Notes: generated by a model from the letters alone, not told the origin. 30,786 nt of DNA from an uncultured virus (IMG/VR IMGVR_UViG_3300021335_000008) (IMGVR_UViG_3300021335_000008); one strand, 5' to 3'; counted from the stretch's first letter, positions 6,792 to 30,786 are shown. Numbers and translations: made by a program.

Positions 6792-7094
6792 CTACTGCCC
6801 TTGCTCACGTGGATCATCCCCTATCATCATCCGTAGATACCAAATGGCTTTTTCTACGTCTTGCTTTTTATTCTGCTTGTTCTTGCAGCGCCAGATGTAT
6901 TTGAACGCATTGAGATGGCAATACTCCTCAAACCCTTCGTCTGAAGTGATTTGTCTCATTGCGTCGATGCACTCGACCCCGTCGCGATTATAATGTGCAG
7001 GACTATTCACTGGATCATGTACCAGTGTAGGGCTTCTGTAGCTAATCCCTTTTCCGTCTTTTGCTTCTGTCCAGCCTTCTGATAAATTACTCAA
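6792..7094 (-). CDS. DUF3310 (T7 gp1.7-like) protein
   Basis: [15 protein letters not shown]...NAFKYIWR..K....DVEKAIWYL signature. Confidence 0.85.
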
Positions 7095-8293
7095 AACTGT
7101 TCTGCCTCCGTAGAATCTGCCATAGCCGCCGTACTACTGCCGAGGGCTGTTGTGATTGCGTCAAAGTATCCAACACCTACTTCCTGCTGGTGTCGAGTTG
7201 ATGTGTACCCAAACTGTTCTGCTGCAAACTCTGCTTCCTGTAGCTGAGAGTATGCAAACATTCCGCGATCCTTGTACTGACGTGCAAAGTTAAATACGCC
7301 ATAGTTTGTACTATGAAACCCTGCAAGTGTAATGAACTGAAACTTAAATCCCATCTTTCCGAGTTCGTACTGAAAGTCTTGTAGCTCCTGATCTCCAGGA
7401 ATAGACTTTCTCCAGTTAAAAGAAGGAGAGCAGTTGTATGCTAACATTGCGTCAGGACAAGATCCTTTTACCGCGTCAGCAAACCGTCGAGCCTCTTTGA
7501 GGCAAGGCTTGCTTGTTTCGCACCACACGAGATCTGCGTATTCTGCGTATGCAGCCCCACGTTCACATCCCATTTCAAGTCCGCCTTCGATCTGCCAAAA
7601 TCCGTCAGCAGTACGATCTCCGGACATCCACTTGTAGTCTGCGTGGTCGTAGTCGCTAGAGAGGAGTCTGGCTGACTCGGCATCAGTCCGAGCGACGACC
7701 AGAGTATCAACCCCAGCAACGTCAGCAGCAAGACGAGCGGCGTTAAGATTGCGGATAGCGTCACTAAGAGGTATAAGGACTTTTCCTCCAAGGTGACCGC
7801 ATTTTTTGGCGGACGCAAGCTGGTCTTCAAAATGGACCCCAGCTGCCCCAGCTTCGATGAGGTTTCTAGCCAATTCATAACTGTTTAGTACTCCTCCAAA
7901 TCCTGCTTCTGCGTCTGCAATAATGGGTGCAAACTCAAAGCCAGTACCACTTTCTGCATACTGGATTTGGTCAGCACGGCGGAAAGCGTTATTAATGTTA
8001 CGCACAACATTGGGTACAGAATCCACACTATAAAGAGACTGGTCAGGGTATACCTCATTATTTGAGTTAGCTGCTGCAGCCACTTGCCAGCCTGAACAAT
8101 AAATTGCTTTAAGACCTGCTTTGACGTGCTGTACAGCCTGCTGACCATTGTACGCTCCAAATGTGTGAATGTAAGGGTTTTCTGCAAGAAGCATACGCAT
8201 TTTGTTTGCCATTCTTCTTGCAAGTGTATGTTCAATGTCCATTGAGCCTTGAAGTTTTCTTACATCTTCACGGGTATAATTTCGTTTTTTCAC
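7091..8293 (-). CDS. aceA: isocitrate lyase
   Basis: [21 protein letters not shown], catalytic [29 protein letters not shown] and HQQEVG motifs. Confidence 0.97.
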
Positions 8294-8895: not shown

Positions 8896-8924
8896 ATTAT
8901 ACTCGCTATGAGATTAAATGTCAA
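8896..8924 (-). promoter_or_regulatory. sigma70 promoter, probably giving a leaderless mRNA
   Basis: TTGACA-17-TATAAT, ATG only 6 nt downstream. Confidence 0.8.
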
Positions 8925-9496
8925 GAATTTTCTCGTAGCTTGTTGAGTATAAATGCCGGAGCCGTAAACATATAAGGATCTTTGTCGTGATTATCCTCGC
9001 GGCCTTCTTCGATGAACCAGTCAACAATGTGTCCATTGTCAACAACTGCTGCATATCTCCAAGATCGTCGACCAAACCCCAGATTGTCTTTGTCCACGAT
9101 CATTTGCATTTCTTCTGTAAATTTACCACTACCGTCAGGAATTACTTGTACGTGCTCGAGGTTTTGGTCGTGTGCCCAAGCATTACATACAAACGCATCG
9201 TTTACTGTAATACAGTAGATTGCGTCGATTCCTAACTCAAAAAACTCTGGTGCAAGTTTTTCAAAGTCAGGTAGCTGGTAGGTGGAACAGGTTGGCGTGA
9301 AAGCGCCTGGCAGGGAGAAGATAAGTACTCGCTCTCCTGCAAAAAGATCCCATGTAGTTACGGGCAACCACTCAAAAGTTCCTTCATTGAGAACTCGAGT
9401 GTGAAACGTAGTTGAGGGAATCATGTCTGGTAGTGAACGCCAGTAGCCTTTTTCTTCGTACTGATCGCGTTCGTGTTCTGTGCAATAAATAGCCAT
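8921..9496 (-). CDS. peroxiredoxin (Prx5/redoxin family)
   Basis: PGAFTPTCS peroxidatic motif, VNDAFV, GFGRRSWRY. Confidence 0.95.
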   Translation of the reverse strand: MAIYCTEHERDQYEEKGYWRSLPDMIPSTTFHTRVLNEGTFEWLPVTTWDLFAGERVLIFSLPGAFTPTCSTYQLPDFEKLAPEFFELGIDAIYCITVNDAFVCNAWAHDQNLEHVQVIPDGSGKFTEEMQMIVDKDNLGFGRRSWRYAAVVDNGHIVDWFIEEGREDNHDKDPYMFTAPAFILNKLRENS

Positions 9497-11562: not shown

Positions 11563-11740
11563 GGTAAGAAACAATAACGTAGAGAGCGCACTGCGTGTGT
11601 TTAAAAAGAAATGCGCTGACATCGTGTGGGAGTATAGACAGCGTGAGCACTATGTTCCCAAATCAGAACAACGGCGGTTAGCTAAAAAAGCCGCCATCGC
11701 TAGAGGTAAGAGGAAGAAAAATGATACCAAGCAATTTTGA
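11549..11740 (+). CDS. rpsU: ribosomal protein bS21 homologue
   Basis: MPKVKVR.NNVESALRVFKKKC.....EYRQREHY.PKSEQRR.AKKAA.AR matches bS21. Confidence 0.9.
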   Translation: MPKVKVRNNNVESALRVFKKKCADIVWEYRQREHYVPKSEQRRLAKKAAIARGKRKKNDTKQF

Positions 11741-12104
11741 ACTTGCAGGCGATTTCATGGAAGCCTTTGGTCAGGAAGTACAAGTTCACCCGACTTGGCC
11801 TGACTTTAGTACTCGTGAGCTACGCCTTGAGTTGATTCGAGAAGAATATGAAGAACTGGAAGAAGCTATTGAAAATCGTGACCTCGTGGAGGTTGCCGAC
11901 GCTCTTACAGATTTGTTATACGTTATCTATGGGGCTGGTCATGCATTTGGCATTGACCTTGATGAATGTTATCTTGAAGTTCACCGGAGTAATATGAGTA
12001 AGCTCGGTGAAGATGGCAGACCTATCAAAAGAGAAGACGGCAAAGTTATCAAGGGGCCAAACTTTTTTGAACCAAACTTAAAAGATATTCTAGTAGAAGC
12101 CTAA
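11721..12104 (+). CDS. MazG-like / PRA-PH NTP pyrophosphohydrolase
   Basis: LIREEYEEL, EVADALTDLLYV, VHRSNMSK, DGKVIKGPNF motifs. Confidence 0.85.
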   Translation: MIPSNFELAGDFMEAFGQEVQVHPTWPDFSTRELRLELIREEYEELEEAIENRDLVEVADALTDLLYVIYGAGHAFGIDLDECYLEVHRSNMSKLGEDGRPIKREDGKVIKGPNFFEPNLKDILVEA

Positions 12105-12105
12105 T

Positions 12106-12246
12106 ATGGATATAGGTCTACTCGGATTGCTCGCAATCTTTATGTGTCCAATGGTATTTGGTGGAATCACCATGTACTATTCACACGAAGCTATACACAA
12201 ACAAACCGTCGAGAGGTGGAAAAAGCAATGTACTCAGATAAAGTAA
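12106..12246 (+). CDS. small membrane protein (46 aa)
   Basis: MDIGLLGLLAIFMCPMVFGG... fills the gap before iscU. Confidence 0.5.
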   Translation: MDIGLLGLLAIFMCPMVFGGITMYYSHEAIHKQTVERWKKQCTQIK

Positions 12247-12602
12247 TTGATCACTATGAAAATCCTCGCAATGTTGGAAAGATGAATAGAGAGGATAAGG
12301 ATGTTGGTACAGGTATGGTGGGAGCACCTGCCTGTGGTGATGTCATGCAACTCCAGATAAGAGTGGAGGATGGAATCATTGAAGACGCGAAGTTTAAAAC
12401 TTACGGCTGTGGGAGTGCTATTGCTTCTAGTTCTTTACTCACCGAGTGGGTCAAAGGAAAAAGTCTTGAAGAAGCCGGGCGAATCAGTAATACAGACATC
12501 GCACGAGAACTTACACTACCTCCAGTAAAAATACATTGTAGTGTACTGGCAGAAGATGCTATAAAGGCAGCAATTGAAGATTATAATAAAAAGGGAGCAT
12601 GA
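12228..12602 (+). CDS. iscU: Fe-S cluster scaffold IscU
   Basis: YSDKVIDHYENPRNVG, GAPACGD, TYGCGSA and LPPVKIHC motifs. Confidence 0.97.
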   Translation: MYSDKVIDHYENPRNVGKMNREDKDVGTGMVGAPACGDVMQLQIRVEDGIIEDAKFKTYGCGSAIASSSLLTEWVKGKSLEEAGRISNTDIARELTLPPVKIHCSVLAEDAIKAAIEDYNKKGA

Positions 12603-18935: not shown

Positions 18936-19116
18936 AGATATATCCTCCAATGCCGACAATGTTAAGTAAGATCAGATTATAGCATTTATTAGCCGTGGCT
19001 TGCAATGTTAATAATACCAATCCGAGAATCGCAATCATCTTACCGGCGTCGGTGTCGATGATGAAGGGCGCTAACATCATGCAAAGCGCCCCAGCCCAAG
19101 CGCAGAAGCCGATCAT
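18919..19116 (-). CDS. small multi-TM membrane protein
   Basis: Hydrophobic 65-aa ORF; ATGA coupling. Confidence 0.65.
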   Translation of the reverse strand: MIGFCAWAGALCMMLAPFIIDTDAGKMIAILGLVLLTLQATANKCYNLILLNIVGIGGYIYALYF

Positions 19117-19409
19117 CCGATCGACTCCAGAACGCTTGAAAGTTCCGCTTTGGTGAGGTCACCTTCACGGGTTGGCAAAGCCAGAGCCTTGCGAATAGCG
19201 GAGAGATATTCCGCTTTCGTTGGGGTGTCGTCCTTGACACGCTTGACAGGCGAGAGCTTGACGTATTCAACGCCAATGCTTTGAGCCTTAGAGATGACCG
19301 AACGATAGGTCACATTGCCAAAATCGGCGGCCAATTCCTTGGCCTTGGCTAGGTTAAGAGGGGCCGCGGCAGTGATGCGAGCGACCATTTCAGGGGTATA
19401 GTTAGACAT
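19113..19409 (-). CDS. T5 A2-like protein, paralogue 3
   Basis: MSNYT...KELA...RSVISKA..GV.Y.K...TKAE; AGGAG SD; near dmp. Confidence 0.65.
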   Translation of the reverse strand: MSNYTPEMVARITAAAPLNLAKAKELAADFGNVTYRSVISKAQSIGVEYVKLSPVKRVKDDTPTKAEYLSAIRKALALPTREGDLTKAELSSVLESIG

Positions 19410-19442
19410 AAGTAAATCTCCTATTGGTTAGTTGATGTGAGT

Positions 19443-19471
19443 ATTCTCTCACAGATTTTAGAATTTGTCAA
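19443..19471 (-). promoter_or_regulatory. pre-early promoter
   Basis: TTGACA-17-GAGAAT; leader CATCAACTAA...AGGAG. Confidence 0.55.
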
Positions 19472-19649
19472 TGGTAAAATTCACATTTTTGCGATTTTTT
19501 TCACGTCGCGCTTGACGCTTTGCGCGACGCTGTTGGCGACTGCGAGCACGATGGTTTTCGTAGGTGTCCATTGATTCCGCGACCACGATGCCGCCCACGA
19601 CGCCCGAGATAAAGGTTATTAAAACAAGCATTAAGATAGTAATTTCCAT
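19458..19649 (-). CDS. membrane-anchored basic protein
   Basis: AAGGAG SD; N-terminal TM helix and Arg-rich tail. Confidence 0.65.
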   Translation of the reverse strand: MEITILMLVLITFISGVVGGIVVAESMDTYENHRARSRQQRRAKRQARREKNRKNVNFTIDKF

Positions 19650-19674
19650 ATCAATCTCCTTAGTTGATGCAAGC

Positions 19675-19704
19675 AGTATCGCATGGCAATGGGGTGCCTG
19701 TCAA
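19675..19704 (-). promoter_or_regulatory. pre-early promoter
   Basis: TTGACA-18-GATACT with extended TG; same CATCAACTAA leader. Confidence 0.5.
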
Positions 19705-19836
19705 TACCCTAACGCAAAATATTTTTTGGTAATATGTCACAGCATAGGGGGGTTAAAAGACCTTGACAAACCGCGCTCGCGCGCGCACCCCCACACGTAC
19801 AACTTTGGGTATTTTCATACCTCGGAAAAAGAGCAC

Positions 19837-19865
19837 TTGACAAAGTAGCTCAATTGAAATATACT
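19837..19865 (+). promoter_or_regulatory. promoter for the RBP module
   Basis: TTGACA-17-TATACT. Confidence 0.75.
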
Positions 19866-19887
19866 TCAAACAATCGGAGAAAATTAT

Positions 19888-20088
19888 ATGAGTATTACAC
19901 TTAATTGGACAGCAACTGTAACTCGGCAAACTGCTTTTGAAAATATTGAAGAGCAGTATAAAACTGGCACGTGGTTAAAAGAGGGGGTGGAACAGGGAGT
20001 AGTCGAAGTTCTTCTAGACGAAGAAGGCAGTCAAACTCTTTCTGACGCAGAAATTATAGAAGGATTATCTAAGCCATGGCTGACGTAA
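19888..20088 (+). CDS. hypothetical protein
   Basis: GGAG SD; first gene of the module. Confidence 0.65.
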   Translation: MSITLNWTATVTRQTAFENIEEQYKTGTWLKEGVEQGVVEVLLDEEGSQTLSDAEIIEGLSKPWLT

Positions 20089-21818
20089 AACTCGTAACAA
20101 AATTTGTTGACTTAGGCTCTACGGGCGGGTTTGGCTTTGCTTTATACGGCTTCCGAAATATCGGAGGAAGTTATGGAAGCTTTGGTACATTAAGTGAAAC
20201 CGCCAATGGTTCTTCAAATACAACTACTTCTTACCTGTATAGCACTAGCACAGATATAAAAGAAGTATATTGGGCAGATCAAACAACAGATACTTTATAT
20301 TTTACTTTAGATGGAAATAGATCTAATTCTGCTTTTATCTGGACAAAATTAAAAATTGGATCTACAACTTTCACAAGAAGTTCCGCAACTTATAGTTATA
20401 ATAGCTCCACCAATAGAACTACATGGAGTTGGGCAACCAGCACAAACCCCTTTGGTAGCACCACAAATGGAACGGACGTAGCTATAGAAGTAATTCTAGA
20501 CGCAAACACAGGACACACTTCTAGCACAACTAGTAAAACTATTACTGCGGGAAGTACAAGCGATGAAACATACAGTTTTAGCAATGCAAGTAGCTCTCAG
20601 AAATATAGACTAATTAAGTCTTCCGGGACAATAGCAAGTGGGGGAGCAAATGGAACCGTAATTGATTCTCGAAACGGAAGCGGTACTCTCACAATTGATT
20701 ATTCAAATAATGAGTTGCCTCCTGCAGGAAATAGTGCAACCTACCAACTACAAGTTTCAGGAGGTTATGTTTCTGCTTCGGAAACTGAAACCGGCTTTTG
20801 GATAGATACTACTGGACAAAATAATTCTTTCACTATTACTCGAGAAGCTGCGGCGACACCTACCTACTCTGTAACAGCCCCCGCTTCAATTAATGAAGGT
20901 TCTGCCGGAACAATTAACGTCACTACTGCAAATGTATCGAACGGTACTACGCTTTATTATACGGTAAGTCCTTCAGGAGACTTTGGAACGTCTTCTGGGT
21001 CATTTACTATAAATAGTAATGCGGGGTCGTTTACTGTAACACCTACAGCAGACGCTACTACAGAAGGTGCAGAAACCGCAACCGTTTCAATTAGAACTGG
21101 AAGTGTTTCAGGTACTATTGTAGCAACTGATACGTTTACAATTAATGATACTTCAACTACTCCAGTACCTACGTATTCAATAAATGCACCCGCTTCAATT
21201 AATGAAGGTTCCGCAGGGACAATTAACGTTACTACTACAAATGTATCAAACGGTACTACGCTTTACTGGGATTTAGACCAAACTACGGACTACTCTACAA
21301 CTCAAGGGTCAGTATCAATTAATTCAAATGCAGCGTCTTTTACAGTTACTCCTACTGCTGATTCTACTACAGAAGGTGCGGAGACAGATACTATTCGTTT
21401 ATACTCAGATTCTGGCCGAACCACAGAAGTTGCAAATGACTCTTTTACAATTAATGATACTTCCACAGGAGGTGGCGGGTCATCGGGCGGTGGTGGCGAC
21501 GGTACTGGTACATATGGTCTTGAAGTACATGGCCCAGACGGGTCTACAATAGTTTTTAGTAACAATCTTAGACAAGTTAATGCAGTTCTTCTCGCTACTG
21601 TAACTCTCACTACTCAAACCTCTACAACTTATACAGGAATCGCAGAAGCTACAGATGCCTCAAAAGTAGCAGTTATAGTTTCAAAAGACAGTCCTACACA
21701 TTTAAGTACTGGAGGAATTTCAATCACGCGAAGTACTGCAAACGGTGGAAGTATAACTTTAACAAACGCCTCAACTAGCACGCAAACAATTAAAGTTGGT
21801 ATTTGGAGAATTGCATAA
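20076..21818 (+). CDS. tail fibre / receptor-binding protein with two Calx-beta/Ig-like repeats
   Basis: S/T/G-rich; duplicated SINEG...ADxTTEGAET...TINDTS domain; upstream of a fibre chaperone; at the T5 oad-equivalent locus. Confidence 0.7.
   Translation: MADVKLVTKFVDLGSTGGFGFALYGFRNIGGSYGSFGTLSETANGSSNTTTSYLYSTSTDIKEVYWADQTTDTLYFTLDGNRSNSAFIWTKLKIGSTTFTRSSATYSYNSSTNRTTWSWATSTNPFGSTTNGTDVAIEVILDANTGHTSSTTSKTITAGSTSDETYSFSNASSSQKYRLIKSSGTIASGGANGTVIDSRNGSGTLTIDYSNNELPPAGNSATYQLQVSGGYVSASETETGFWIDTTGQNNSFTITREAAATPTYSVTAPASINEGSAGTINVTTANVSNGTTLYYTVSPSGDFGTSSGSFTINSNAGSFTVTPTADATTEGAETATVSIRTGSVSGTIVATDTFTINDTSTTPVPTYSINAPASINEGSAGTINVTTTNVSNGTTLYWDLDQTTDYSTTQGSVSINSNAASFTVTPTADSTTEGAETDTIRLYSDSGRTTEVANDSFTINDTSTGGGGSSGGGGDGTGTYGLEVHGPDGSTIVFSNNLRQVNAVLLATVTLTTQTSTTYTGIAEATDASKVAVIVSKDSPTHLSTGGISITRSTANGGSITLTNASTSTQTIKVGIWRIA
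20859..21467 (+). repeat. tandem intragenic duplication with 309-bp period
   Basis: CCCGCTTCAATTAATGAAGGTTC..GG.ACAATTAACGT and ACTACAGAAGGTGC blocks occur twice. Confidence 0.85.
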
Positions 21819-22552
21819 TGTCTTATGGTATAGAAATAACTGGTTCAGACGGCTCTACAACTTTTCAAGTTTTAGATTCTGATTTAAATTCAGACAATTA
21901 TCAAGTAGTTGCTACTGGATCCGCGAGTACTATAGATATTTCAAGTTCTGCTTACGGGGGTTCAACAGGACAAGCACGTATTTTTATTAAACCGCAATCA
22001 GGAGGCCCAACAACTGCCGATATTTCTGGTTCCAGTTACAGTTTTTATAGATATAATACAACTGAAGATGGCTCTGGTAATGTAATAGAAGCAACCAGAA
22101 CGGCAATTAGTGTCCCGTACATAATTATTAAAGATATTGCAAACACTCCTGTAAATAGTTCACAAGGCACTTATGGAATTCAAGTATTTAAATCAAATGG
22201 AGACCCAGCATTTGATTCGCGAAGATTTAACACAAATGAAAGCTTTCGCCTTCTAGGAGTAGTAGCAATAGGGACTGTGACAGGAGATCCTTTAGCCTCA
22301 GGAGCAACATTAGCGGGGCCAAGTGCAGATGTACTAGATTACTATTTTGAAGCTTCTTCTTTTTACCATGAAACAGGCTCTACAAGCGGAAATGTGCAAG
22401 GCTTTGAAAGATTAGGTTCTGGGTCGGGTACTGTAATACGTAACGCTGGGTATTTCTGGAACGAAGGAACTGGAGGCGGAGGAAGAAGTGGACAGAACCT
22501 TACTTTTTACTTTTCTAATAGGTACCCAATAGTTTATGGAGAACTACGATAA
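21818..22552 (+). CDS. tail-tip / fibre-associated protein
   Basis: Two YGI.(I/V)...G...F motifs; TAATG coupling. Confidence 0.6.
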   Translation: MSYGIEITGSDGSTTFQVLDSDLNSDNYQVVATGSASTIDISSSAYGGSTGQARIFIKPQSGGPTTADISGSSYSFYRYNTTEDGSGNVIEATRTAISVPYIIIKDIANTPVNSSQGTYGIQVFKSNGDPAFDSRRFNTNESFRLLGVVAIGTVTGDPLASGATLAGPSADVLDYYFEASSFYHETGSTSGNVQGFERLGSGSGTVIRNAGYFWNEGTGGGGRSGQNLTFYFSNRYPIVYGELR

Positions 22553-23046
22553 TGACACATGGATATATACTAGCAGATGCTACAACAGGAAAAATTTTTA
22601 GTATTCGTTACCCTACAGGCAATATGCCTACAAGCGGGGTAACGGATGATGGAGTATATAGAAATATTATACTTACAGATGCTAATTTACCAAATGAAGA
22701 TTGTTTAAATTTTGATTACTTTGTTATGAATTACTACTATCAAGAGTCTACAGGAACTTTTGTCTACACTGGGCTACCAGTAAATGAGCACGCCTCCTGG
22801 GACTTTAGCACTTCAAGCTGGGCTTGGGATGCTTCAAAAGTAACAAAAGAAATTAGACAAAAAAGAAACGCACTTTTAACAACTAGCGACTGGGCGGTTT
22901 TACCTGATGCTCCTTTCACAGATTCAGAGGTTACAGAAATAAAAGCGTATAGACAAACTTTACGAGATTTTCCTTCTACTGTATCTGGTAACCCTGCTAC
23001 AACTGGTGATGTAACCTGGCCAACAAAGCCATCTTGTCTAGGTTAG
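22552..23046 (+). CDS. tail fibre assembly chaperone
   Basis: R.KRN.LL..SDW..LPDAP....AYRQ.LRD.P....WP..P. Confidence 0.85.
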   Translation: MTHGYILADATTGKIFSIRYPTGNMPTSGVTDDGVYRNIILTDANLPNEDCLNFDYFVMNYYYQESTGTFVYTGLPVNEHASWDFSTSSWAWDASKVTKEIRQKRNALLTTSDWAVLPDAPFTDSEVTEIKAYRQTLRDFPSTVSGNPATTGDVTWPTKPSCLG

Positions 23047-23057
23047 AAAAATATACC

Positions 23058-23086
23058 TTGACATTCAACCCCCTCTGACATATAAT
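23058..23086 (+). promoter_or_regulatory. sigma70 promoter for the exported-protein operon
   Basis: TTGACA-17-TATAAT. Confidence 0.8.
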
Positions 23087-23112
23087 TGGAGAATACGAAA
23101 TCGGAAACCCAA

Positions 23113-23292
23113 ATGTTAAAAGTAACTTACAAACATTGGAAAAGTGGAGTCAGACTGGAAGCAATCGGTACTATGCCCAAAGGAGTTAATAATGGGATGA
23201 GTGATCGCATTGTTGTTCTACAACCTGATGGCACTTATAAAGATATTATTAAAACAACCATAATAAGGGTAGAGGAATGCGACCCAGAATAA
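23113..23292 (+). CDS. small hypothetical protein
   Basis: MLKVTYKHW...; first ORF after the promoter. Confidence 0.6.
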   Translation: MLKVTYKHWKSGVRLEAIGTMPKGVNNGMSDRIVVLQPDGTYKDIIKTTIIRVEECDPE

Positions 23293-23825
23293 AATATGTA
23301 TTTGCAGCATTGTTAGTATCAGTTCCAGCATTTGCACAGGAAACTGAAGCACCAGAGCCAATCATTACAGAGTCGACGGTAACAACAAAGCAAGAGACGG
23401 ATTTGAAGTCGCCTCCTGCATCGGCAATAAGTCCTACAATCAACACGAGTAATAGCGACTTATGTACCTTCGGCGTAGCGGGTGCGGTGCAAACTCAGAT
23501 ACTCGGTGTATCAACTGGCACGCAGATTACGGATGATAACTGCGAAATGCTGAAAAACGCGAAAACTTTGTACGACATGGGAATGAAAGTTGCAGCGGTA
23601 TCAGTCATGTGTCAGGACCAACGAGTATTTGATGCAATGATGAATGCTGGAACACCCTGTCCAAAAGATGGGCTGATCGGAGCAGAAGCGAAGGCAGCGT
23701 GGGAAGTAGCAGACGCAGAAGAGCCTCAAGAGCTCAAGGAAAAGATAGAGGAATTTACGAGTGACGAAAAGACTCTCATTGGCTCTGCTGGCGTTCTCGC
23801 TTTGCTCGCCTTACTCCTACTCTGA
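23277..23825 (+). CDS. exported Cys-containing protein with C-terminal hydrophobic anchor
   Basis: Signal peptide (AFA-QE), four Cys, terminal GVLALLALLLL. Confidence 0.75.
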   Translation: MRPRIKYVFAALLVSVPAFAQETEAPEPIITESTVTTKQETDLKSPPASAISPTINTSNSDLCTFGVAGAVQTQILGVSTGTQITDDNCEMLKNAKTLYDMGMKVAAVSVMCQDQRVFDAMMNAGTPCPKDGLIGAEAKAAWEVADAEEPQELKEKIEEFTSDEKTLIGSAGVLALLALLLL

Positions 23826-24633
23826 AGAAGTTTACGGCACGACAAATAACGCTGCTGCTTTTGGTTTAAATTGGGTAATGACCAATATACTTCCGGCCCA
23901 AGCTGGACTGGAAATAAATGGGTTGGTATACCAGTATACAACAGTAAAAGACCCTGAAACAGGAATGATTGTGTACGTACAGAACGAGTACGCAGATGGT
24001 TCAGGATATATTTTTCGAAATGTCGACGATTGGTCAGGACTTCCAGGAAATACAGTTCGTAAGAAATTTGCTTTTCCAAACTTAAATGCAGAACTGTGGG
24101 GTCCGGGATCAATTGAAGTAGAAGGCGAAGGAAGTGTAGAAGATGCCAGCGTGGTCTATTCGTATAGGTACGATACGTGTTTTGATCCTCAAAGCGACCC
24201 GAGTTGCCCCGGATACGAAGAACAAGTTGAAGTACCCGAGATTCCAATTTATGACCCGCTCCAAGACCAATTGGTACAGGACGACATGGAGAGGAAAGCT
24301 CGAGTACAGGAACAGGAAGAAGAGGAAGAAAGGCAGCGACGACGAGAGCAGTGGGCAATCAGCAACGCTCTTGAAGACTTGCTGGCTGATGGAGATAACC
24401 CTGGGCTCGTAGATCCAGTTGCAGAGGCGATGGCATTAGCGCTGACATCTCGCACTCTTCCTACAGATTATTTCTACGGACTAGAAGGACGAGAGTACTT
24501 CGATACCGTAGTTCTTGAAGGTGGGGACATACCCGACAACCCGAGTGCAAGACGCAGTAATCTTGCACAACAACTGCTTCACCAGCAGATGGTAGACTCA
24601 CAATACGAGTCAAGTCAACAGGAGACTAAGTAA
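23761..24633 (+). CDS. exported protein (beta-rich domain plus acidic coiled coil)
   Basis: GAGG SD; signal peptide; CFDPQSDPSCPGY motif. Confidence 0.75.
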   Translation: MTKRLSLALLAFSLCSPYSYSEEVYGTTNNAAAFGLNWVMTNILPAQAGLEINGLVYQYTTVKDPETGMIVYVQNEYADGSGYIFRNVDDWSGLPGNTVRKKFAFPNLNAELWGPGSIEVEGEGSVEDASVVYSYRYDTCFDPQSDPSCPGYEEQVEVPEIPIYDPLQDQLVQDDMERKARVQEQEEEEERQRRREQWAISNALEDLLADGDNPGLVDPVAEAMALALTSRTLPTDYFYGLEGREYFDTVVLEGGDIPDNPSARRSNLAQQLLHQQMVDSQYESSQQETK

Positions 24634-25130
24634 TGTTGAAAGTAGTAGTTCCAATGGCATCAGCCATTTTGGCAACAGAGTTCGTAATGGCTCAAACCGA
24701 AATCGTGGGTAATGTTGATTCAAAGTGTATCATCATTTCAGAAACCCCAGGAGTCTACGGCAACCCGAATCCCTACAAGCTGACAACAACTTCTTCGGAT
24801 GGTGGTGTGCAGCCAATTATTCGATATGACGTACTTGCTGCAGACTATTACAAAGCTGTGATTGAGCATCCAATTGCATTTTCTTCATCTCCTTCACTCG
24901 ACGATACAGTGACATGGACTGGAGATGTAGAAGTATCTGAAACGTCAGATGAAGATATGGCAGGATACGATGATGCTAAAGTTGAGTATGATAACGCGCA
25001 CGAATATGAGATGACTGTAGCTGGGAGTACGTGGTTTAAGATTTCTTCTACCGCTTCTTTCGGTTATAACAAATCATTTCCTGCAGGAACCTACACCGCC
25101 GTTGTGGAGGCAGAGTGTATTCCGCTGTAA
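24633..25130 (+). CDS. pilin-like exported beta-sandwich protein
   Basis: N-terminal IVGNVDSKCII and C-terminal AGTYTAVV..EC resemble chaperone-usher pilin termini. Confidence 0.55.
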   Translation: MLKVVVPMASAILATEFVMAQTEIVGNVDSKCIIISETPGVYGNPNPYKLTTTSSDGGVQPIIRYDVLAADYYKAVIEHPIAFSSSPSLDDTVTWTGDVEVSETSDEDMAGYDDAKVEYDNAHEYEMTVAGSTWFKISSTASFGYNKSFPAGTYTAVVEAECIPL

Positions 25131-25489
25131 CTCGTTTTCTACTCCTGTTGTTTGTAAGTGGGTCAGCAATGGCCCACGAACTTACACCGACATATCCTGA
25201 GTTACGTCCTTCGTATATGAATGATATACTTGAAGCGAAATTGAAAATGTGGAATGCTCGCGTGGATGTAGAATATTATAAGATTGAAGTCACGGACGAA
25301 GACTGGAATGATGTCCCTTTCATAACTACAGAGAAAGTGTTTAGATTAAACTATCTGGGTAGGAGAGACATTAGTGTATTTCTTCCGAGTGACACATCTG
25401 CCAAGTACATATGTACCAAGTCGATGTTAAAAAAAGGAAGTGCTGGAAAAAGCATTATATCATCAAAAGTTTGTTCGAAGATTAAGTGA
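25115..25489 (+). CDS. exported Ig-fold protein resembling a pilus chaperone
   Basis: Signal peptide (AMA-HE), L.MWN....YY.IEV, alternating beta pattern, two Cys. Confidence 0.5.
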   Translation: MYSAVTRFLLLLFVSGSAMAHELTPTYPELRPSYMNDILEAKLKMWNARVDVEYYKIEVTDEDWNDVPFITTEKVFRLNYLGRRDISVFLPSDTSAKYICTKSMLKKGSAGKSIISSKVCSKIK

Positions 25490-25890
25490 GGCCTCGTATG
25501 AGACTCTTTTACATACTATTACTGATACCTTCAGTAGCTTTCGGTCAGTCGGTAAATTTACAGATGCCGGGGTCGCCACAAAGTTACCAGTCGGATCGAT
25601 TTAGGCACGGAGATATGGATTGCTCCAACGCTATCGGTTCATCCACGAACTTGGAGTTTGGAGTTCTTGGACTTATTGACGAACCAGACTATTTGATGCA
25701 GAATTATAGTACGGGCGGCACATCTACAGGTGTGTATGCTCGTATAACAATACCGTTGGACAAACCAAAGGAACGAATAAATTGTAACACATTATATCAA
25801 CTTGCACTAGAAAGAGAAAGATTGGAGGTGCAGAGACTGAAGCAAGAGGTGGCAAACCTTCGAGCACTTCAGTTTGAGAACGATAACTGA
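25486..25890 (+). CDS. exported protein (Cys-flanked beta hairpin plus coiled coil)
   Basis: Signal peptide (AFG-QS), LEFGV...GVYARITIPL, C-terminal heptad helix. Confidence 0.7.
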   Translation: MRPRMRLFYILLLIPSVAFGQSVNLQMPGSPQSYQSDRFRHGDMDCSNAIGSSTNLEFGVLGLIDEPDYLMQNYSTGGTSTGVYARITIPLDKPKERINCNTLYQLALERERLEVQRLKQEVANLRALQFENDN

Positions 25891-26369
25891 TGGCAGAATT
25901 TGAATTTGCTGGAATGACATTTAAGGGCGGAAAGGCTGCAATAGTCTTTACTGCCCTTTCTACGTTAGGGGGAGCGCTTTGGGCAGGCTTTGAGTTCTAC
26001 AAAGACTACATGGATATGCGAGAGATTGTAGCAAATATTGATGTAGGAGCAATTGATGCTCGAAATTCTGTAATTGAAACTCAACTTGAAGAAGCAATTG
26101 CTTATACTCGTGATATTAAAAATGGGTTAAAAGATGATATTACCCGAATTGAACGTGTAACAGATAGTACAAGTGCACGAGTAAAAGATATACAAACTGA
26201 CATTGATGAAAGACTAAGAGATATGTCTAGCCTTACTCGAGAAACAGAAAAAGATGTACGAGATACAATGCGAGACGTAGAAAACCGCATTGAAGCCGAT
26301 ATGGAGAAACTCGAAGATGATTTGGAAGAAAGGTTACAAAAAGCTTTAGACAATCCGTTAGCGGACTAA
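25890..26369 (+). CDS. membrane-anchored long coiled-coil protein
   Basis: One N-terminal TM helix then heptad repeats; TGATG coupling. Confidence 0.75.
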   Translation: MAEFEFAGMTFKGGKAAIVFTALSTLGGALWAGFEFYKDYMDMREIVANIDVGAIDARNSVIETQLEEAIAYTRDIKNGLKDDITRIERVTDSTSARVKDIQTDIDERLRDMSSLTRETEKDVRDTMRDVENRIEADMEKLEDDLEERLQKALDNPLAD

Positions 26370-26386
26370 GGTACCAAAAATAAACC

Positions 26387-26415
26387 TTGACTTTGCAACT
26401 GGCATGGAGTAGAAT
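26387..26415 (+). promoter_or_regulatory. promoter for terS, probably leaderless
   Basis: TTGACT-17-TAGAAT, ATG 6 nt downstream. Confidence 0.7.
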
Positions 26416-26421
26416 TGCAAA

Positions 26422-26886
26422 ATGGGTAAAGAAGTAACAACAATATCGCCAGAAGGTCTTGAAGTAGCCAATTGTTATTTGCAGTATGGTAACATTCGCG
26501 CTGTCTGCGATTTCATGGGAGTACCCGAAAATCAAGTCGTTGAGGTTCTCAACAAGCGTGAAGTAAAGAAATATATTGATACCGTATACTTGGATATGGG
26601 GTATCGAAACAAAAATAATATTGCTACTGTACTCGATGAGATGATTGCAAGCAAGCTGGAAGAAGCACAAGAAACTGGTGTATACTCTTCAAAAGACCTT
26701 GCAGACTTACTACAGATGGCACACAAAATGCGCATGGATGAAATCAAAGCGCAAGCAGATTTACTAAAAGCCGAAACGACTAATATTCGTAATCAAACAA
26801 ACGTTCAGATAAACGATGCAGCTCTTCCATTCGGACAAGGTAATTATGGTAAACTCATGGAGAAGTTGTTAAATGGATCTGAATGA
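26422..26886 (+). CDS. terS: terminase small subunit, T5-like
   Basis: SPEG.EV...YLQ, EVK.Y, G.RN, VLDE.I..KLEE..ETG, AHKM, QTNVQ and NY..L recalled from T5 TerS. Confidence 0.88.
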   Translation: MGKEVTTISPEGLEVANCYLQYGNIRAVCDFMGVPENQVVEVLNKREVKKYIDTVYLDMGYRNKNNIATVLDEMIASKLEEAQETGVYSSKDLADLLQMAHKMRMDEIKAQADLLKAETTNIRNQTNVQINDAALPFGQGNYGKLMEKLLNGSE

Positions 26887-27076
26887 TAGAGTACGAGAGA
26901 TTGAAGTCGAAATGGCTCAACACGAAGCGCAGTGCGAAGAGCGCTGGAAAACTACGTTTAATCGTCTCATGAATATTGAAGACGGGCTAAAGCGTATCGA
27001 AAACCGAATAATGGTAGCAGGAGGCAGTATTATAATTTTCCTCGCAGGAGTAATTGTAACATTACTCATGGGCTAG
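26873..27076 (+). CDS. coiled-coil protein with C-terminal TM (XhlA/holin-like)
   Basis: HEAQCEERW coiled coil followed by a hydrophobic tail. Confidence 0.65.
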   Translation: MDLNDRVREIEVEMAQHEAQCEERWKTTFNRLMNIEDGLKRIENRIMVAGGSIIIFLAGVIVTLLMG

Positions 27077-27079
27077 TGA

Positions 27080-27208
27080 GTGAGACAACCAATTGAATAT
27101 GAATTTCAACCAAAACGACGGAGATTTTTAAAAGACTTTATTTTTGCATGCTCTATAGGATTTAATATAGGGTTAATCATCGGGCTACTAATGTTAGCCT
27201 TTTCCTAG
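27080..27208 (+). CDS. small membrane protein
   Basis: GTG start, 42 aa, C-terminal TM helix. Confidence 0.45.
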   Translation: MRQPIEYEFQPKRRRFLKDFIFACSIGFNIGLIIGLLMLAFS

Positions 27209-27217
27209 GAGATAATT

Positions 27218-27397
27218 ATGGAAATTTTTCAACGAGGAGCCTCCTGGGTTTGGCAGAAAAAACCCGGAGTCGAGCACGTGTGTAACACAAAAGAAGAAGC
27301 TTATGCAGCAGCAGGCATGAAAATGCCCGCTGAAATCCCAGTACCCGAAGTTCGGGAATACGATACCTTAGAGGAGGCTATCGCAGAGGAAGACTAA
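27218..27397 (+). CDS. small acidic hypothetical protein (59 aa)
   Basis: AGGAG SD; TAATG coupling. Confidence 0.65.
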   Translation: MEIFQRGASWVWQKKPGVEHVCNTKEEAYAAAGMKMPAEIPVPEVREYDTLEEAIAEED

Positions 27398-27561
27398 TGC
27401 CAGCAGGTAAAGGTACTTACGGTAAAAAGCGTGGACGCCCAGCAAAGAAGGGCAAGAAGAAAAAGTCTATGGGCGGTTTAACAGCGGCCCAAAAGAAGTT
27501 GCCTCCAGCACTACGAAAGGCCCTTATGAAGAAGAAGCGTGGCGGTAAGAAGAAGAAGTAA
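27397..27561 (+). CDS. very basic small protein (54 aa)
   Basis: MPAGKGTYGKKRGRPAKKGKKKK...GGKKKK. Confidence 0.7.
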   Translation: MPAGKGTYGKKRGRPAKKGKKKKSMGGLTAAQKKLPPALRKALMKKKRGGKKKK

Positions 27562-27727
27562 GCGTAAAAGCGCTAAAAAACGCCCCGTGCCTACAAACAA
27601 AAAGTTGTACGCACGAGTAAAAGCACAAGCAAAGCGTAAATTTAAAGTTTATCCTTCAGCTTATGCAAACGGTTGGCTTGTAAAAACTTACAAAGCACAA
27701 GGCGGTAAATACCGCATGGGAAAGTAA
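27539..27727 (+). CDS. very basic small protein
   Basis: LYARVK..AK.KF.VYPSAYANG.LV..YK..GG.Y. Confidence 0.7.
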   Translation: MAVRRRSKRKSAKKRPVPTNKKLYARVKAQAKRKFKVYPSAYANGWLVKTYKAQGGKYRMGK

Positions 27728-27808
27728 GATGGAATTTATACTTGGTATGGTAGTAGGTGCATTACTACATTGGTCCTGGAAAAAGTGGGGACATAAGCTT
27801 ACACTCTA

Positions 27809-28099
27809 ATGGCTAAGCCAAAAGGTGGACTTACTAAGTGGTTCAAAGAAAAATGGGTAGATATCTCCCGTCCAAAAAAGGGCGGGGGTTATCACGCCTG
27901 CGGTCGAAAGACTTCAAAGAAAGGAAAATATCCAAAATGCGTTCCTGCAGCAAAAGCAGCTCGTATGACAAAAGCTCAGAAAAAATCCGCTATTCGTCGT
28001 AAAAGAGCAGCAGGCAATCCAGGAGGCAAGCCGACTATGGTAAAAACATTTACCAAGCGGAAAGCGAGAATGAGACGTGGCGGCAAGAAGAAAAGGTAG
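27809..28099 (+). CDS. very basic protein
   Basis: GGL.KWF.EKWVD...CGR...YPKC.P. Confidence 0.75.
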   Translation: MAKPKGGLTKWFKEKWVDISRPKKGGGYHACGRKTSKKGKYPKCVPAAKAARMTKAQKKSAIRRKRAAGNPGGKPTMVKTFTKRKARMRRGGKKKR

Positions 28100-28382
28100 A
28101 AAGAAAGATCCTCGTTTAGCACGTGCACGGGTAAAAGGGTATAACAAACCTCGTCGTACTCCAGGCCACCCAAAGAAGTCCCATATTGTCGTAGCAAAGG
28201 TAGGTGACAAAATCAAAACGATTCGATTTGGGCAAAAAGGTGCAAAGACTGCAGGAAAGCCAAAGAAAGGCGAAAGTGCCGCAATGAAAGCAAAGCGTAA
28301 GAGTTTTAAAGCTCGTCACGCAAAGAATATTGCAAAAGGCAAGATGTCAGCAGCGTACTGGGCTGATAAGGTGAAATGGTAA
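28077..28382 (+). CDS. very basic protein
   Basis: K.IRFGQ.G...SF.ARH.......SAAYWA...KW. Confidence 0.75.
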   Translation: MAARRKGRKKDPRLARARVKGYNKPRRTPGHPKKSHIVVAKVGDKIKTIRFGQKGAKTAGKPKKGESAAMKAKRKSFKARHAKNIAKGKMSAAYWADKVKW

Positions 28383-28780
28383 TGTTTGATCGTCAAGTTG
28401 AAGAGCTAAACTCAAGCTGGGCATATAAGTATGATATTGACCAGTACGCAAAGCGAGAACACTGGCAAATCATGAAAGAGCACCCTTACGTAGGTGATTG
28501 TGAAGATTACGCGCTTACGCTACTATATTTAATCAGTGGTAAGTCTATGTGGAAGTTTTGGTTTTATCTTATTACTGGTAAAGCACAAATTCGTAGAGTT
28601 ACTACAAAAAACGGAGGAGGACACGCCGTTCTGCGTTTTGGAAAACACTGGGCAGACAACTGGACTAAGAAGTTTGTCGAGTGGGAGGAAATGGAAAAGC
28701 TAGGGCACAAAAAGTATTACTGGTTCTACCTTCCTCAAGACGTGGCACTTAAACTTGCCATCGCAAAGTGGAAAAAATAG
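28382..28780 (+). CDS. transglutaminase-like cysteine protease (BTLCP/C93-like)
   Basis: GDCEDYA, GHAVL and DN catalytic-triad motifs. Confidence 0.75.
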   Translation: MFDRQVEELNSSWAYKYDIDQYAKREHWQIMKEHPYVGDCEDYALTLLYLISGKSMWKFWFYLITGKAQIRRVTTKNGGGHAVLRFGKHWADNWTKKFVEWEEMEKLGHKKYYWFYLPQDVALKLAIAKWKK

Positions 28781-29106
28781 TGGGAGAAGATATTGAAAAA
28801 GCCGGCTATCATCCAGCAGATGTAAATGGTGATAACAAAGTTGACGACCAAGAAAAAGCGATGTATCTCGAGTTCAAGCGAAAAGAGCTAGAAGACCAAG
28901 ATGCAATGCGAGATGCGCAGCGAAAAATGACATGGTTTGCACTTGCAGGTATGCTACTTTATCCTGCTACAGTAATGACTACAGAGGTCATGGGGCTTCA
29001 TCAAGCTGCAGAAATACTAGGGTCAATGGCTTCAGTATATTTTGTTTCCGTAGCTGGTATTGTAGCTGCATTCTTTGGTGCTCAAGCATGGTCTGGCAAA
29101 AAATAA
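28768..29106 (+). CDS. two-TM holin-like protein with an N-terminal EF-hand-like loop
   Basis: DVNGDNKVDDQE loop; two hydrophobic helices. Confidence 0.55.
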   Translation: MEKIVGEDIEKAGYHPADVNGDNKVDDQEKAMYLEFKRKELEDQDAMRDAQRKMTWFALAGMLLYPATVMTTEVMGLHQAAEILGSMASVYFVSVAGIVAAFFGAQAWSGKK

Positions 29107-29381
29107 CACCATTACTGTTTTTAACAGGATGTGTTGCAATGTCACCAAATCTTGAGATACACGAAGACTTGGTAACAGGGCAGGAGTACTACAGTTTTGA
29201 GCTTGGAGTGTCTTACCCAAAGAAAAAATTTATGACTCCGGAAGAGTGGATAGAGTATCATGAGTCTCCGGATAGCCAAAAGGAAGCACTATATGCTACT
29301 TATAAAGAGCGAGAAGAAATTGAAAAGCGCTGGGAAAACTTTATTGAGAATTGTCTCCTGGCCGGTACGCTGGATTGCTAG
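29088..29381 (+). CDS. putative lipoprotein
   Basis: MVWQKITPLLFLTGC lipobox. Confidence 0.5.
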   Translation: MVWQKITPLLFLTGCVAMSPNLEIHEDLVTGQEYYSFELGVSYPKKKFMTPEEWIEYHESPDSQKEALYATYKEREEIEKRWENFIENCLLAGTLDC

Positions 29382-29562
29382 TTTTTTCTTCAACGAGTGG
29401 GAAGTCACTATTTGGATAGACCCCCAAAAGAAAACAGAGTATCTCTTTAAATGGCTTGATAAATGTGAGCCGAAACACTTGAAAGGACGACTTGTATCTG
29501 GAGAACCTTTTGAGCTACGAACGCAAGAAGCGTTCAATTATCAGATTAAAAAGGTGAAGTAA
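29320..29562 (+). CDS. hypothetical protein
   Basis: ORF track; start uncertain; TAATG coupling downstream. Confidence 0.55.
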   Translation: MKSAGKTLLRIVSWPVRWIASFFFNEWEVTIWIDPQKKTEYLFKWLDKCEPKHLKGRLVSGEPFELRTQEAFNYQIKKVK

Positions 29563-29984
29563 TGCTAGGAATGATTAAAATGCTTCCAATTGTGATACTT
29601 CTTGCAGGAGCAGGATATGCGTATCATACAACTATAGTAAGCCAAAAAGATGCAGTAATTGCAAGGCTAGAAGCAAATGCAGTAACTCTTAAAGAGAATG
29701 CTATGCGACTCGAAACTGCGTTTGAACGAGAGCAGGCAGCACGAGAGCGATCAGAACAAAACTTACAGTCTCAGCTAAAAGCAGTGGGAGATTTGACCGA
29801 AAAGAATAATGCTATGCAGCAAGAAATGGATGGGTACTTGTCTATTTTTAAACGTCATGATATGACTCGTCTTGCAAGAGCAAAACCTGGGTTAATTGAG
29901 CCTAGGATTAACAAAGGAACACAGGCAGTATTTCGTTCCATTGAAGAGGCAAGCAAGGAGGTAGAAAATGCGGATTCTCAGTAG
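29562..29984 (+). CDS. putative i-spanin (Rz-like)
   Basis: N-terminal TM plus coiled coil; overlaps a lipoprotein gene. Confidence 0.65.
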   Translation: MLGMIKMLPIVILLAGAGYAYHTTIVSQKDAVIARLEANAVTLKENAMRLETAFEREQAARERSEQNLQSQLKAVGDLTEKNNAMQQEMDGYLSIFKRHDMTRLARAKPGLIEPRINKGTQAVFRSIEEASKEVENADSQ

Positions 29985-30399
29985 TGTATTACTATTATCA
30001 CTCGGAGGATGCTCGCTACTACAACCGCAACCTCTGCCAGCGCCAGAACCAATTATTAAAACAGTAACAGAGTATAAGACTCTTGAGATATATCAACCTC
30101 CGTTACCAAAAGCAATTGACTTACAAGATGTAGAATTTTTTGTAATTACAGAAAAGAATTTTGAAGAGCAAGTAAAAAAACTTGAAAAAATGCAAAGCGG
30201 TACTTATGTGCTCTTTGGTATTACGCCACAAGACTACGAAAACATGGCGTATAATTTACAAGAGCTGAAAAGATATATTGGTCAGCAAAAAGAAATTATT
30301 ATTTACTATCGTCAAGCTACTCAAGGCGATGAAAACACAGACTCTGAAGATTGGATTGAGCGAAATGAAGAAGTTCTTGACGATCAAAAACAGGACTAA
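29968..30399 (+). CDS. putative o-spanin lipoprotein
   Basis: LGGC lipobox followed by a Pro-rich segment. Confidence 0.65.
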   Translation: MRILSSVLLLSLGGCSLLQPQPLPAPEPIIKTVTEYKTLEIYQPPLPKAIDLQDVEFFVITEKNFEEQVKKLEKMQSGTYVLFGITPQDYENMAYNLQELKRYIGQQKEIIIYYRQATQGDENTDSEDWIERNEEVLDDQKQD

Positions 30400-30402
30400 A
30401 TT

Positions 30403-30786
30403 ATGGCTGTTCAAATTAGTCGAGCAGATGTATCTTGCGGAGAGATACTAGATTTACAATCTGAGACACGCTTCTTAAAGCTGCCTACAGACCCTTACCT
30501 GAGTCTGCTGGGCGTTACACCCTTACCTTCTCAGGTAGCAATTATAAATGCGATTAATAATCCTAAGTACAGATTTGTCTGTGCGGCAGTTTCAAGGCGG
30601 CAAGGCAAAACATATATCGCAAACATAATCGGGCAACTTGTATCGTTAGTTCCCGGTTCTAACATTCTAATCATGTCCCCCAATTACTCGCTGTCTCAGA
30701 TTTCTTTTGACTTACAAAGAAATCTAATTAAGCACTTTGACTTAGAGGTAGCGAAAGATAATGCAAAAGATAAAGTTATTGAGCTG
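30403..30786 (+). CDS. terL: terminase large subunit, 5' part
   Basis: Q.AIINA...P.YRFV.A.VSRRQGKT Walker A and PNYSL, as in T5 TerL; runs off the window. Confidence 0.92.
   Translation, partial: MAVQISRADVSCGEILDLQSETRFLKLPTDPYLSLLGVTPLPSQVAIINAINNPKYRFVCAAVSRRQGKTYIANIIGQLVSLVPGSNILIMSPNYSLSQISFDLQRNLIKHFDLEVAKDNAKDKVIEL

Follow-up and report, generated by a model that had tools for sequence, protein, structure and literature searches.

In a 30,786-nucleotide (nt) stretch of DNA from an uncultured virus (IMG/VR IMGVR_UViG_3300021335_000008), here called the window, positions 23058-26369 hold a promoter, a small open reading frame (ORF) designated s59 and six genes, designated A to F, whose products carry export or membrane-anchoring features. 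We find that this block is one copy of a widespread, phage-only and undescribed 'envelope cassette'. As to its function, we give an even chance to the reading that C and D are the core of a chaperone/subunit-like assembly that works in the periplasm without an usher, has A and F as its anchors, comes into play late, plausibly at about the time of lysis, and is not a true pilus. The features of the unit are as follows.

23058..23086, + strand: consensus sigma-70-type promoter, TTGACA-17 nt-TATAAT, read directly in the sequence
23113..23292, + strand: s59, a small non-exported ORF, first in the unit, without Pfam or PHROG match
23277..23825, + strand: A, 182 residues; signal peptide, Thr/Ser-rich linker, four-Cys domain (about residues 55-135), C-terminal hydrophobic anchor
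23761..24633, + strand: B, 290 residues; signal peptide, jelly-roll-like beta domain (23-138), Cys140/Cys149 loop, long charged helices
24633..25130, + strand: C, 165 residues; signal peptide, conserved N-terminal I-x-G-x-V-x-S-K-C, predicted immunoglobulin (Ig)-like beta-sandwich closed by Cys32/Cys162
25115..25489, + strand: D, 124 residues; signal peptide and one small domain, mature start at the invariant His21, Cys100/Cys120
25486..25890, + strand: E, 134 residues; signal peptide, two conserved strand-like segments flanked by Cys46/Cys100, C-terminal amphipathic helix
25890..26369, + strand: F, 159 residues; conserved N-terminus, one transmembrane segment, periplasmic coiled coil, conserved C-terminal LDNPL

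One promoter precedes seven overlapping ORFs

Seven ORFs, all on the + strand, lie 3' of the promoter: s59, followed by A to F, which span 23277-26369. Each overlaps its neighbour, by 16 nt (s59/A), 65 nt (A/B), 1 nt (B/C), 16 nt (C/D), 4 nt (D/E) and 1 nt (E/F). The promoter at 23058-23086 is the sole 12/12 site among 25 promoter-like sites in 19000-30786. That total is no higher than in shuffled sequences (mean 23.2), and it is the perfect match alone that stands out; by our own arithmetic, about 0.004 such sites would be expected by chance in 11.8 kb over both strands. The small ORF s59 is confined to the closest relatives (13 loci, 7 distinct sequences), and its alternative longer TTG start at 23086 falls within the -10 box and is therefore unusable.

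The N-termini of A to E each combine a basic n-region, a hydrophobic core and a small-x-small site (AFA, SYS, VMA, AMA and AFG, in that order), and from this pattern and its conservation across relatives the five signal peptides are probably cleaved. None of the five (0/5) has a lipobox Cys at the cleavage site, and E is not a lipoprotein. In alignments of 46 sequences the invariant Cys residues are C63/C89/C112/C128 in A, C140/C149 in B (whose third Cys sits within the signal peptide), C32/C162 in C, C100/C120 in D and C46/C100 in E, as expected for proteins oxidised in the periplasm. Searches of Pfam gave no match for s59 or A to E and only coiled-coil noise for F, and when profiles of the six families were run against PDB sequences, no match fell below E 0.05, apart from coiled-coil matches for F. 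The sequence reading and the ORF coordinates bear out the first-pass annotation in its view that one consensus promoter drives a small ORF and six overlapping genes. Its five proteins with signal peptides and paired Cys are confirmed by the signal-like N-termini and the Cys residues invariant in relatives, and its sixth protein, a membrane-anchored coiled coil, by the topology of F.

Phage virions assemble in the reducing cytoplasm. Since the block sits between the tail-fibre genes and the head/terminase genes, its products could be considered virion or ejection proteins, with the hydrophobic N-termini serving as membrane-insertion segments instead of export signals. Five canonical n-h-c signal regions with small-x-small sites, invariant even numbers of Cys and the cytoplasmic site of virion assembly all speak against this, and we regard it as barely credible.

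The cassette is conserved as a unit across phage lineages

With B, 113 relatives were found in IMG/VR, from which 80 loci were kept; C added 13 loci, giving 93 loci on 87 distinct contigs. The order A-B-C-D-E-F is the same in 80 of the 93 loci (74 of the 87 distinct contigs), and the other 13 loci are cut by the contig end exactly at the missing genes. Identity of B among the relatives extends down to 42%. Conservation of the genes as a unit had been set beforehand as a test of the operon, and the ordered block in 74 of 87 contigs answers it in the affirmative.

The window carries T5-like signs, namely a split NAD-dependent ligase, a D5-like regulator and a DnaB-like helicase, and the terminase small subunit has matches of about 40% identity in 908 records of T5-like phages. 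The conservation of the block upholds the earlier description of a phage operon of exported proteins, and the carrier genes place it in a T5-like phage. A T4-type Gp23 capsid gene is present on the contigs behind locus L073 (152 kb; 4e-147) and locus L044 (116 kb; 1.2e-151), and the block is thus common to T4-like and T5-like phages. A search of 185,579 species genomes gave four matches to the cassette family, all in contigs of metagenome-assembled genomes; because only these four matched, the family looks phage-specific. The nearest ESM Atlas clusters are 80-100% viral. The D family alone comprises 2485 clusters at 90% identity in public metagenomes, which makes the cassette one of the more frequent gene blocks without explanation in phages of the ocean and of fresh water. 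Full-text literature searches, supplements aside, gave no description of the cassette, and a search for passages in PMC12014285 gave nothing relevant.

Two sub-modules occur separately in cultured phages

The block divides into two sub-modules, A with F and C with D and E, each occurring by itself in cultured phages. The trio is represented in Vibrio phage Thalassa by gp150 (C profile, 6e-7), gp151 (D profile, 4e-9) and gp152 (E profile, 2e-13). Next after these come a lipobox protein, a small ORF, an annotated holin and an annotated endolysin; A, B and F were not found in the whole Thalassa record. The other half is present in pelagiphage HTVC115P, as the A-like gp54 (4e-51) and the F-like gp49 (7e-38), and in roseophage CRP-810, as the A-like gp53 (3e-21) and the F-like gp51 (2.4e-10). 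The whole records of these two phages yielded no B, D or E, and the C profile gave no match in the neighbouring genes, to which the search for C was confined. When the region was compared with cultured phages by blastn, only a 173-bp stretch of A was matched, in HTVC115P, and a tblastn search of cultured phage records with B gave no match.

E matches 185 phage records, of which 180 are from Vibrio, 3 from Erwinia and 2 from Klebsiella. The first-pass annotation had seen no counterpart of the unit in T5. This stands insofar as none of the 185 records is from E. coli, but not for T5-like phages at large, since cultured Vibrio T5-like phages carry C-D-E.

The annotation of CRP-810 (locus L103; 3911-4666, 5297-5719) deserves a remark. 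There gp53 is labelled 'OmpA family protein', yet it has no Pfam domain and is A-like, and gp51 is labelled 'lysozyme', yet it is F-like, with a transmembrane segment and a coiled coil. Both labels are probably wrong.

Protein C has pilin-like ends and a weak structural likeness to pilins

Residues 32-164 of C fold confidently as a beta-sandwich in the predicted structure (predicted local distance difference test, pLDDT, 89.8). The top Foldseek matches of this model are chaperone-usher pilins, namely CfaB, the PapG pilin domain and FimF, with CS17, FimG and CsuA/B further down, and they are weak (E 9e-4 and above; template modelling (TM) score about 0.42). The mature N-terminus, I-x-G-x-V-x-S-K-C, is nearly invariant, the C-terminus reads P-A-G-x-Y-x-A-x-V-x-A-E-C, and both ends resemble those of FimF, FimG and FimA. 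Very distant relatives retain h-x-h-x-G-T-h-x-x-x-C at the N-terminus and F-P-x-G-x-Y-x-A...C at the C-terminus. The pilin-like ends noted earlier for ORF 24633 are therefore real features of the protein, and the Ig-like predicted fold and the pilins at the top of the Foldseek list go with them.

Clustered at 50% identity, the C family is represented by 109 sequences, of which many are fragmentary. Compared with Pfam at E up to 1, C and seven distant relatives gave no match, the pilin families (Fimbrial, CS1-type and SCPU) included, and a Foldseek search of BFVD with C returned nothing at E values of 0.001 or less.

Protein D is predicted to bind the terminal strands of C

Mature D comprises about 104 residues and forms one domain. 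When mature C and mature D were modelled as a complex, the interface score ipSAE was 0.76, 0.75 and 0.76 in three runs, compared with 0.47, 0.19 and 0.00 for the controls. Among solved complexes 116 of 157 attain the mark used for this score, and among mismatched pairs 2 of 215 do so; this calibration is rough here, where our own alignments were used. At least 93% of contacts agreed between runs, and the partner pLDDT was at least 86.

The predicted interface sets residues 30-36 and 155-165 of C against residues 21-27, 46-52, 98 and 114-122 of D. Among the listed contacts, D 116-122 runs parallel to C 157-164 and also touches C 33-34, so that the N-terminus and last strand of D lie against the first and last strands of C. 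In chaperone-subunit complexes, the G1 donor strand of the chaperone runs parallel to the last strand of the subunit. A strand alongside the last strand of the subunit is likewise seen in the predicted complex (D 114-122/21-27 with C 155-165/30-36). The modelling supports C-D binding, short of proof, and most likely C and D pair much as a subunit does with its chaperone. ORF 25115 had been described as a single Ig-fold chaperone; the chaperone-like position of D on the terminal strands of C is recovered in a controlled complex prediction, whereas homology to PapD was not found. The nearest family-bearing ESM Atlas cluster of D is PapD_N at 0.84, which is below the 0.9 mark and serves as a lead only, and a search for PapD_N in the genome behind locus L097 did not find it.

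The pair can be set beside the chaperone-usher systems (FimC with FimA/F/G, and Caf1M-Caf1 of the FGL type). Common to both are an exported subunit, represented here by C with its type 1 pilin-like end motifs and its predicted Ig-like sandwich, and a small periplasmic partner, D, predicted to hold the subunit through parallel terminal beta-strands. Unlike those systems, the cassette has a partner of one domain (about 104 residues), no usher, no detectable sequence homology and only a weak structural match; it is also phage-borne and presumably late, and includes two inner-membrane-anchored and two further exported proteins without counterpart. The DEv-IgG domains of the MSCRAMM proteins SdrD, ClfB, SdrG and FnBPA also count among the closest known systems.

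The remaining proteins and the case for a pilus

The C-terminal hydrophobic tail of A is a feature beyond the earlier description. A matches phrog_20531 at 3.6e-16 and has homologues in pelagiphages, roseophages and other phages; its longer forms number 257, and no match was found in Pfam or PDB. The AlphaFold2 model of B is of moderate quality (pLDDT 71.4), with generic jelly rolls as its only Foldseek matches (TM score up to 0.29). E matches phrog_37374 at 3e-8. It has no match in Pfam or PDB, its 46 relatives include none (0/46) that match an envelope family, and in the ESM Atlas it meets unnamed viral clusters only. In F, the hydrophobic segment lies near residues 16-35, and the sequence downstream of it draws weak coiled-coil-type matches only.

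An usher would be a gene product of about 800 residues. None of that size is present in the window, whose longest ORF has 580 residues, and the Pfam usher family was not found in A to F, in the 580-residue neighbour or in the large genes of related loci. ORF lengths and Pfam thus agree with the earlier statement that an usher-sized gene is absent.

The cassette could nonetheless encode a true minimal pilus or surface appendage, in which D would hand C to a pore made of E and/or A oligomers and the polymer would emerge at the surface for adhesion, aggregation or exclusion. The pilin-like ends of C, the pilins at the head of its structural matches and the predicted C-D binding all suit such a device. 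So do the two conserved amphipathic strand-like segments between Cys46 and Cys100 of E, together with its oligomerisation-type helix; 3 of the 46 E relatives match the C4bp oligomerisation domain, weakly (best E 0.035). What counts against a pilus is that no usher or known pore family was found, that A has an inner-membrane-type C-terminal anchor and a conserved domain without a match to barrel proteins, and that the promoter motif of T4-like relatives makes the cassette late there, leaving little time for a surface organelle before lysis. We consider a pilus distinctly improbable. The outer-membrane pore once proposed for A or E gains no support from any of the analyses.

Promoters of the cassette and its place among late genes

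Among the relatives, 59 distinct regions upstream of A were compared: 19 have a 12/12 or 11/12 sigma-70 site, and 20 have the T4 late motif TATAAATA at most 320 nt from A, against a background of 0.1 per kb. The promoters of the cassette differ by lineage. In the window, the same promoter type is found at the tail-fibre gene (11/12 site) and at the terminase small subunit (10/12 site, 26387-26415). Here too the cassette stands among late-type genes, from which we infer its timing in this phage. Four RNA-library runs, belonging to four studies, yielded contigs with at least 90% likeness to parts of 23044-26065; within 22000-27500 their coverage is patchy over 23044-26065 and absent from 22000-22919, the variable tail-fibre region.

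Phage-made proteins that act in the host envelope are exemplified by T5 Llp and by T4 Imm and Sp, which are single small early proteins tied to one receptor or step. The cassette differs from these in being a six-protein block, in showing no similarity to them and in being conserved across phage families. It might be a larger analogue, in which the proteins alter or cover receptors, blocking other phages or sparing the loss of progeny on debris. Phage-encoded envelope proteins beside tail-fibre genes, and the precedents of Llp, Imm and Sp, lend this some appeal. The same six proteins, however, recur at 42-100% identity in phages with different tail-fibre genes and of different families, which fits poorly with receptor-specific masking, and late-type promoters fit poorly as well, because the known exclusion genes act early. 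Exclusion or masking is accordingly improbable. More broadly, we found no evidence for the adhesion, aggregation or exclusion role first suggested; the T4 late motif in relatives and the lysis neighbours point to a late, lysis-related or periplasmic role.

Lysis genes in the neighbourhood

The following flanking genes are referred to below.

22552..23046, + strand: tail-fibre assembly protein, just upstream of the cassette (Pfam Phage_tail_APC, 2.4e-16)
26422..26886, + strand: terminase small subunit, just downstream (phrog_3802, 1.9e-38)
28768..29106, + strand: protein with two transmembrane segments ('hol112'), holin-like by topology alone
29562..29984, + strand: Rz-like i-spanin (phrog_739, 5.6e-12)
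29968..30399, + strand: o-spanin-like gene with an LGGC lipobox (phrog_812, 4.2e-13)

Downstream of F there follow, in order, the terminase small subunit, small membrane and very basic proteins, a BTLCP-like peptidase and hol112, and then a lipobox ORF, the Rz-like and Rz1-like genes and an apparent start of the large terminase subunit. Hol112 and the Rz/Rz1-like pair lie 2.4-3.2 kb downstream of the cassette. A hol112 homologue lies at most 600 nt after F in nine divergent loci (L030, L045, L048, L072, L073, L076, L077, L079 and L092). In other lineages F is directly followed by a lipoprotein (L040, L041, L053 and L060), a tail-anchored small protein or a small outer-membrane-protein-like protein. 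In L073, an Rz-like gene is found 2.9 kb after F.

The two-component spanins, such as lambda Rz/Rz1, resemble the cassette in that F has i-spanin topology, with the N-terminal transmembrane segment and periplasmic coiled coil of that class; conserved periplasmic Cys residues and nearby lysis genes are further points of likeness. The profile support for F is a weak match to phrog_739 (7e-6), a promiscuous profile that also responds in 8 of 14 control genomes. The cassette differs from spanins in having six members against two and in lacking an outer-membrane lipoprotein partner in the window. A replacement of the spanins by the cassette was considered and set aside, separate Rz-like genes being present alongside it.

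A related possibility is that the cassette is a lysis device or regulator in its own right, in which F, E and A would form a periplasm-spanning complex that breaks the outer membrane or times its rupture, or senses conditions for lysis delay, with C and D as accessories. The topology of F and its phrog_739 match are in keeping with this, as are the lysis genes nearby in the window, Thalassa and L073, the two-transmembrane protein, lipoprotein or tail-anchored protein that directly follows F according to lineage, and the T4 late-promoter motif in relatives. Yet the window, Thalassa and the T4-like contigs each have a separate Rz-like gene, the phrog_739 profile is as unspecific as described, the cassette of the window comes without a lipoprotein partner, and its adjacency to lysis genes is inconstant. 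On balance this account is unlikely, though not negligible.

A proposed periplasmic assembly without an usher

Returning to the usher-less assembly of C and D, we propose that D would act like the subunit-holding half of the chaperone of a chaperone-usher system. C would be the subunit, and its conserved N-terminal I-x-G-x-V-x-S-K-C segment could, to judge from its sequence, serve as a donor strand. The assembled product would stay in the periplasm, as no usher or other pore is available to it, and would be tethered to the inner membrane through A and F. Acting late, it would most likely prepare, time or execute the breakdown of the envelope at lysis, and no surface fibre would be formed.

Several observations weigh against this proposal. 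For the pairing of C and D, alignment of C with FimA/I/F/G by hhalign placed only the signal peptides together, hhalign of D with FimC gave a probability of 0.2%, and Pfam gave no meaningful match for the 46 members of the D family, with neither PapD_N nor PapD_C in any of them (0/46). D has one domain, compared with two in true chaperones. An unrelated control reached 0.47 on C, so that the edge of C is sticky; the insertion of a strand of D into C is read from the contact list, not from coordinates, and is to that extent putative; and the Cys32-Cys162 bridge may restrict the groove in C. For the timing, the RNA evidence is weak, in that the contigs have neither strand nor start, DNA carry-over is possible and transcription is not established. 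For lysis, the link of the cassette rests on neighbourhood and is suggestive, not firm, because the phrog_739 matches of L044 and Thalassa are distant (the sole match in the L044 contig lies more than 30 kb from the cassette, that of Thalassa about 7 kb away) and the profile is promiscuous. The phage has its own spanin pair, and the cassette is not needed as a spanin.

The proposal can be extended to a late periplasmic machine common to aquatic phages of at least three morphotypes, in which D, a one-domain chaperone working without an usher, would build C into a polymer or lattice. A and F would attach this structure to the inner membrane, E and B would attach it to the outer layers, and it would govern the manner and time of envelope failure. 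In this fuller form it is speculative, and we hold it to be unlikely. If it is true, it would add a further lysis-stage class beside holins, endolysins and spanins, and would be the first chaperone/subunit assembly working without an outer-membrane pore. If the strand complementation between C and D alone is true, the chaperone/subunit principle would be usable without an usher.

Knowing what the cassette does would also shed light on how the host envelope is dealt with by marine phages of high abundance, because the unit crosses T4-like and T5-like lineages, and one half or the other is present in pelagiphages, roseophages and Vibrio phages. Cultured carriers, with C-D-E in Vibrio T5-like phages and A with F in pelagiphage and roseophage isolates, make the question directly testable by genetics.

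Other genes of the window and related loci

The N-terminal part of the two-transmembrane protein at 28768-29106 contains a D-x-N-x-D-x-x-V-x-x-x-E stretch, in which Pfam finds nothing and which we take to resemble an EF-hand calcium loop. A possible lipoprotein of 97 residues with an L-T-G-C lipobox (29088-29381, + strand), encoded from an internal ATG of the 28932 ORF, overlaps the end of this gene. Adjoining the two-transmembrane and spanin-like genes is a 134-residue protein (28376-28780, + strand) without a signal peptide, which falls just below the Pfam cut-off for BTLCP, a transglutaminase-like cysteine peptidase (26.2 bits against 27).

In the window, about 3.5 kb separate the gene for the terminase small subunit (26422) from what seems to be the start of the large-subunit gene (30403), and small membrane proteins, very basic proteins and lysis-type genes are encoded in between. 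In Vibrio T5-like phages the terminase genes abut. The very basic small proteins (27397-28382, + strand) match phrog_23735 and phrog_7595 and, weakly, DUF5872. A phrog_7595 member also adjoins the F-like gene of CRP-810 (gp50) and is found 3' of the cassette in L073.

In three loci (L004, 4424-4786; L059, 9179-9538; L071, 8669-9028), F is followed by a signal-peptide protein of about 120 residues without a Pfam match, ending in S-W-[RK]-[VA]-A-F, which resembles an outer-membrane beta-barrel C-terminal signal.

In the whole window (1-30786), ARAGORN found no tRNA gene, and 13-16 kb is poor in long ORFs. A 400-residue protein of the isocitrate lyase family (7091-8293, - strand; Pfam ICL at 1.7e-90, and PEP_mutase) looks like the product of an auxiliary metabolic gene. 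Further host-type metabolic genes encode a peroxiredoxin-like protein (8921-9496, - strand), a MazG-like pyrophosphohydrolase (11721-12104, + strand) and a NifU-like Fe-S assembly protein (12144-12602, + strand).

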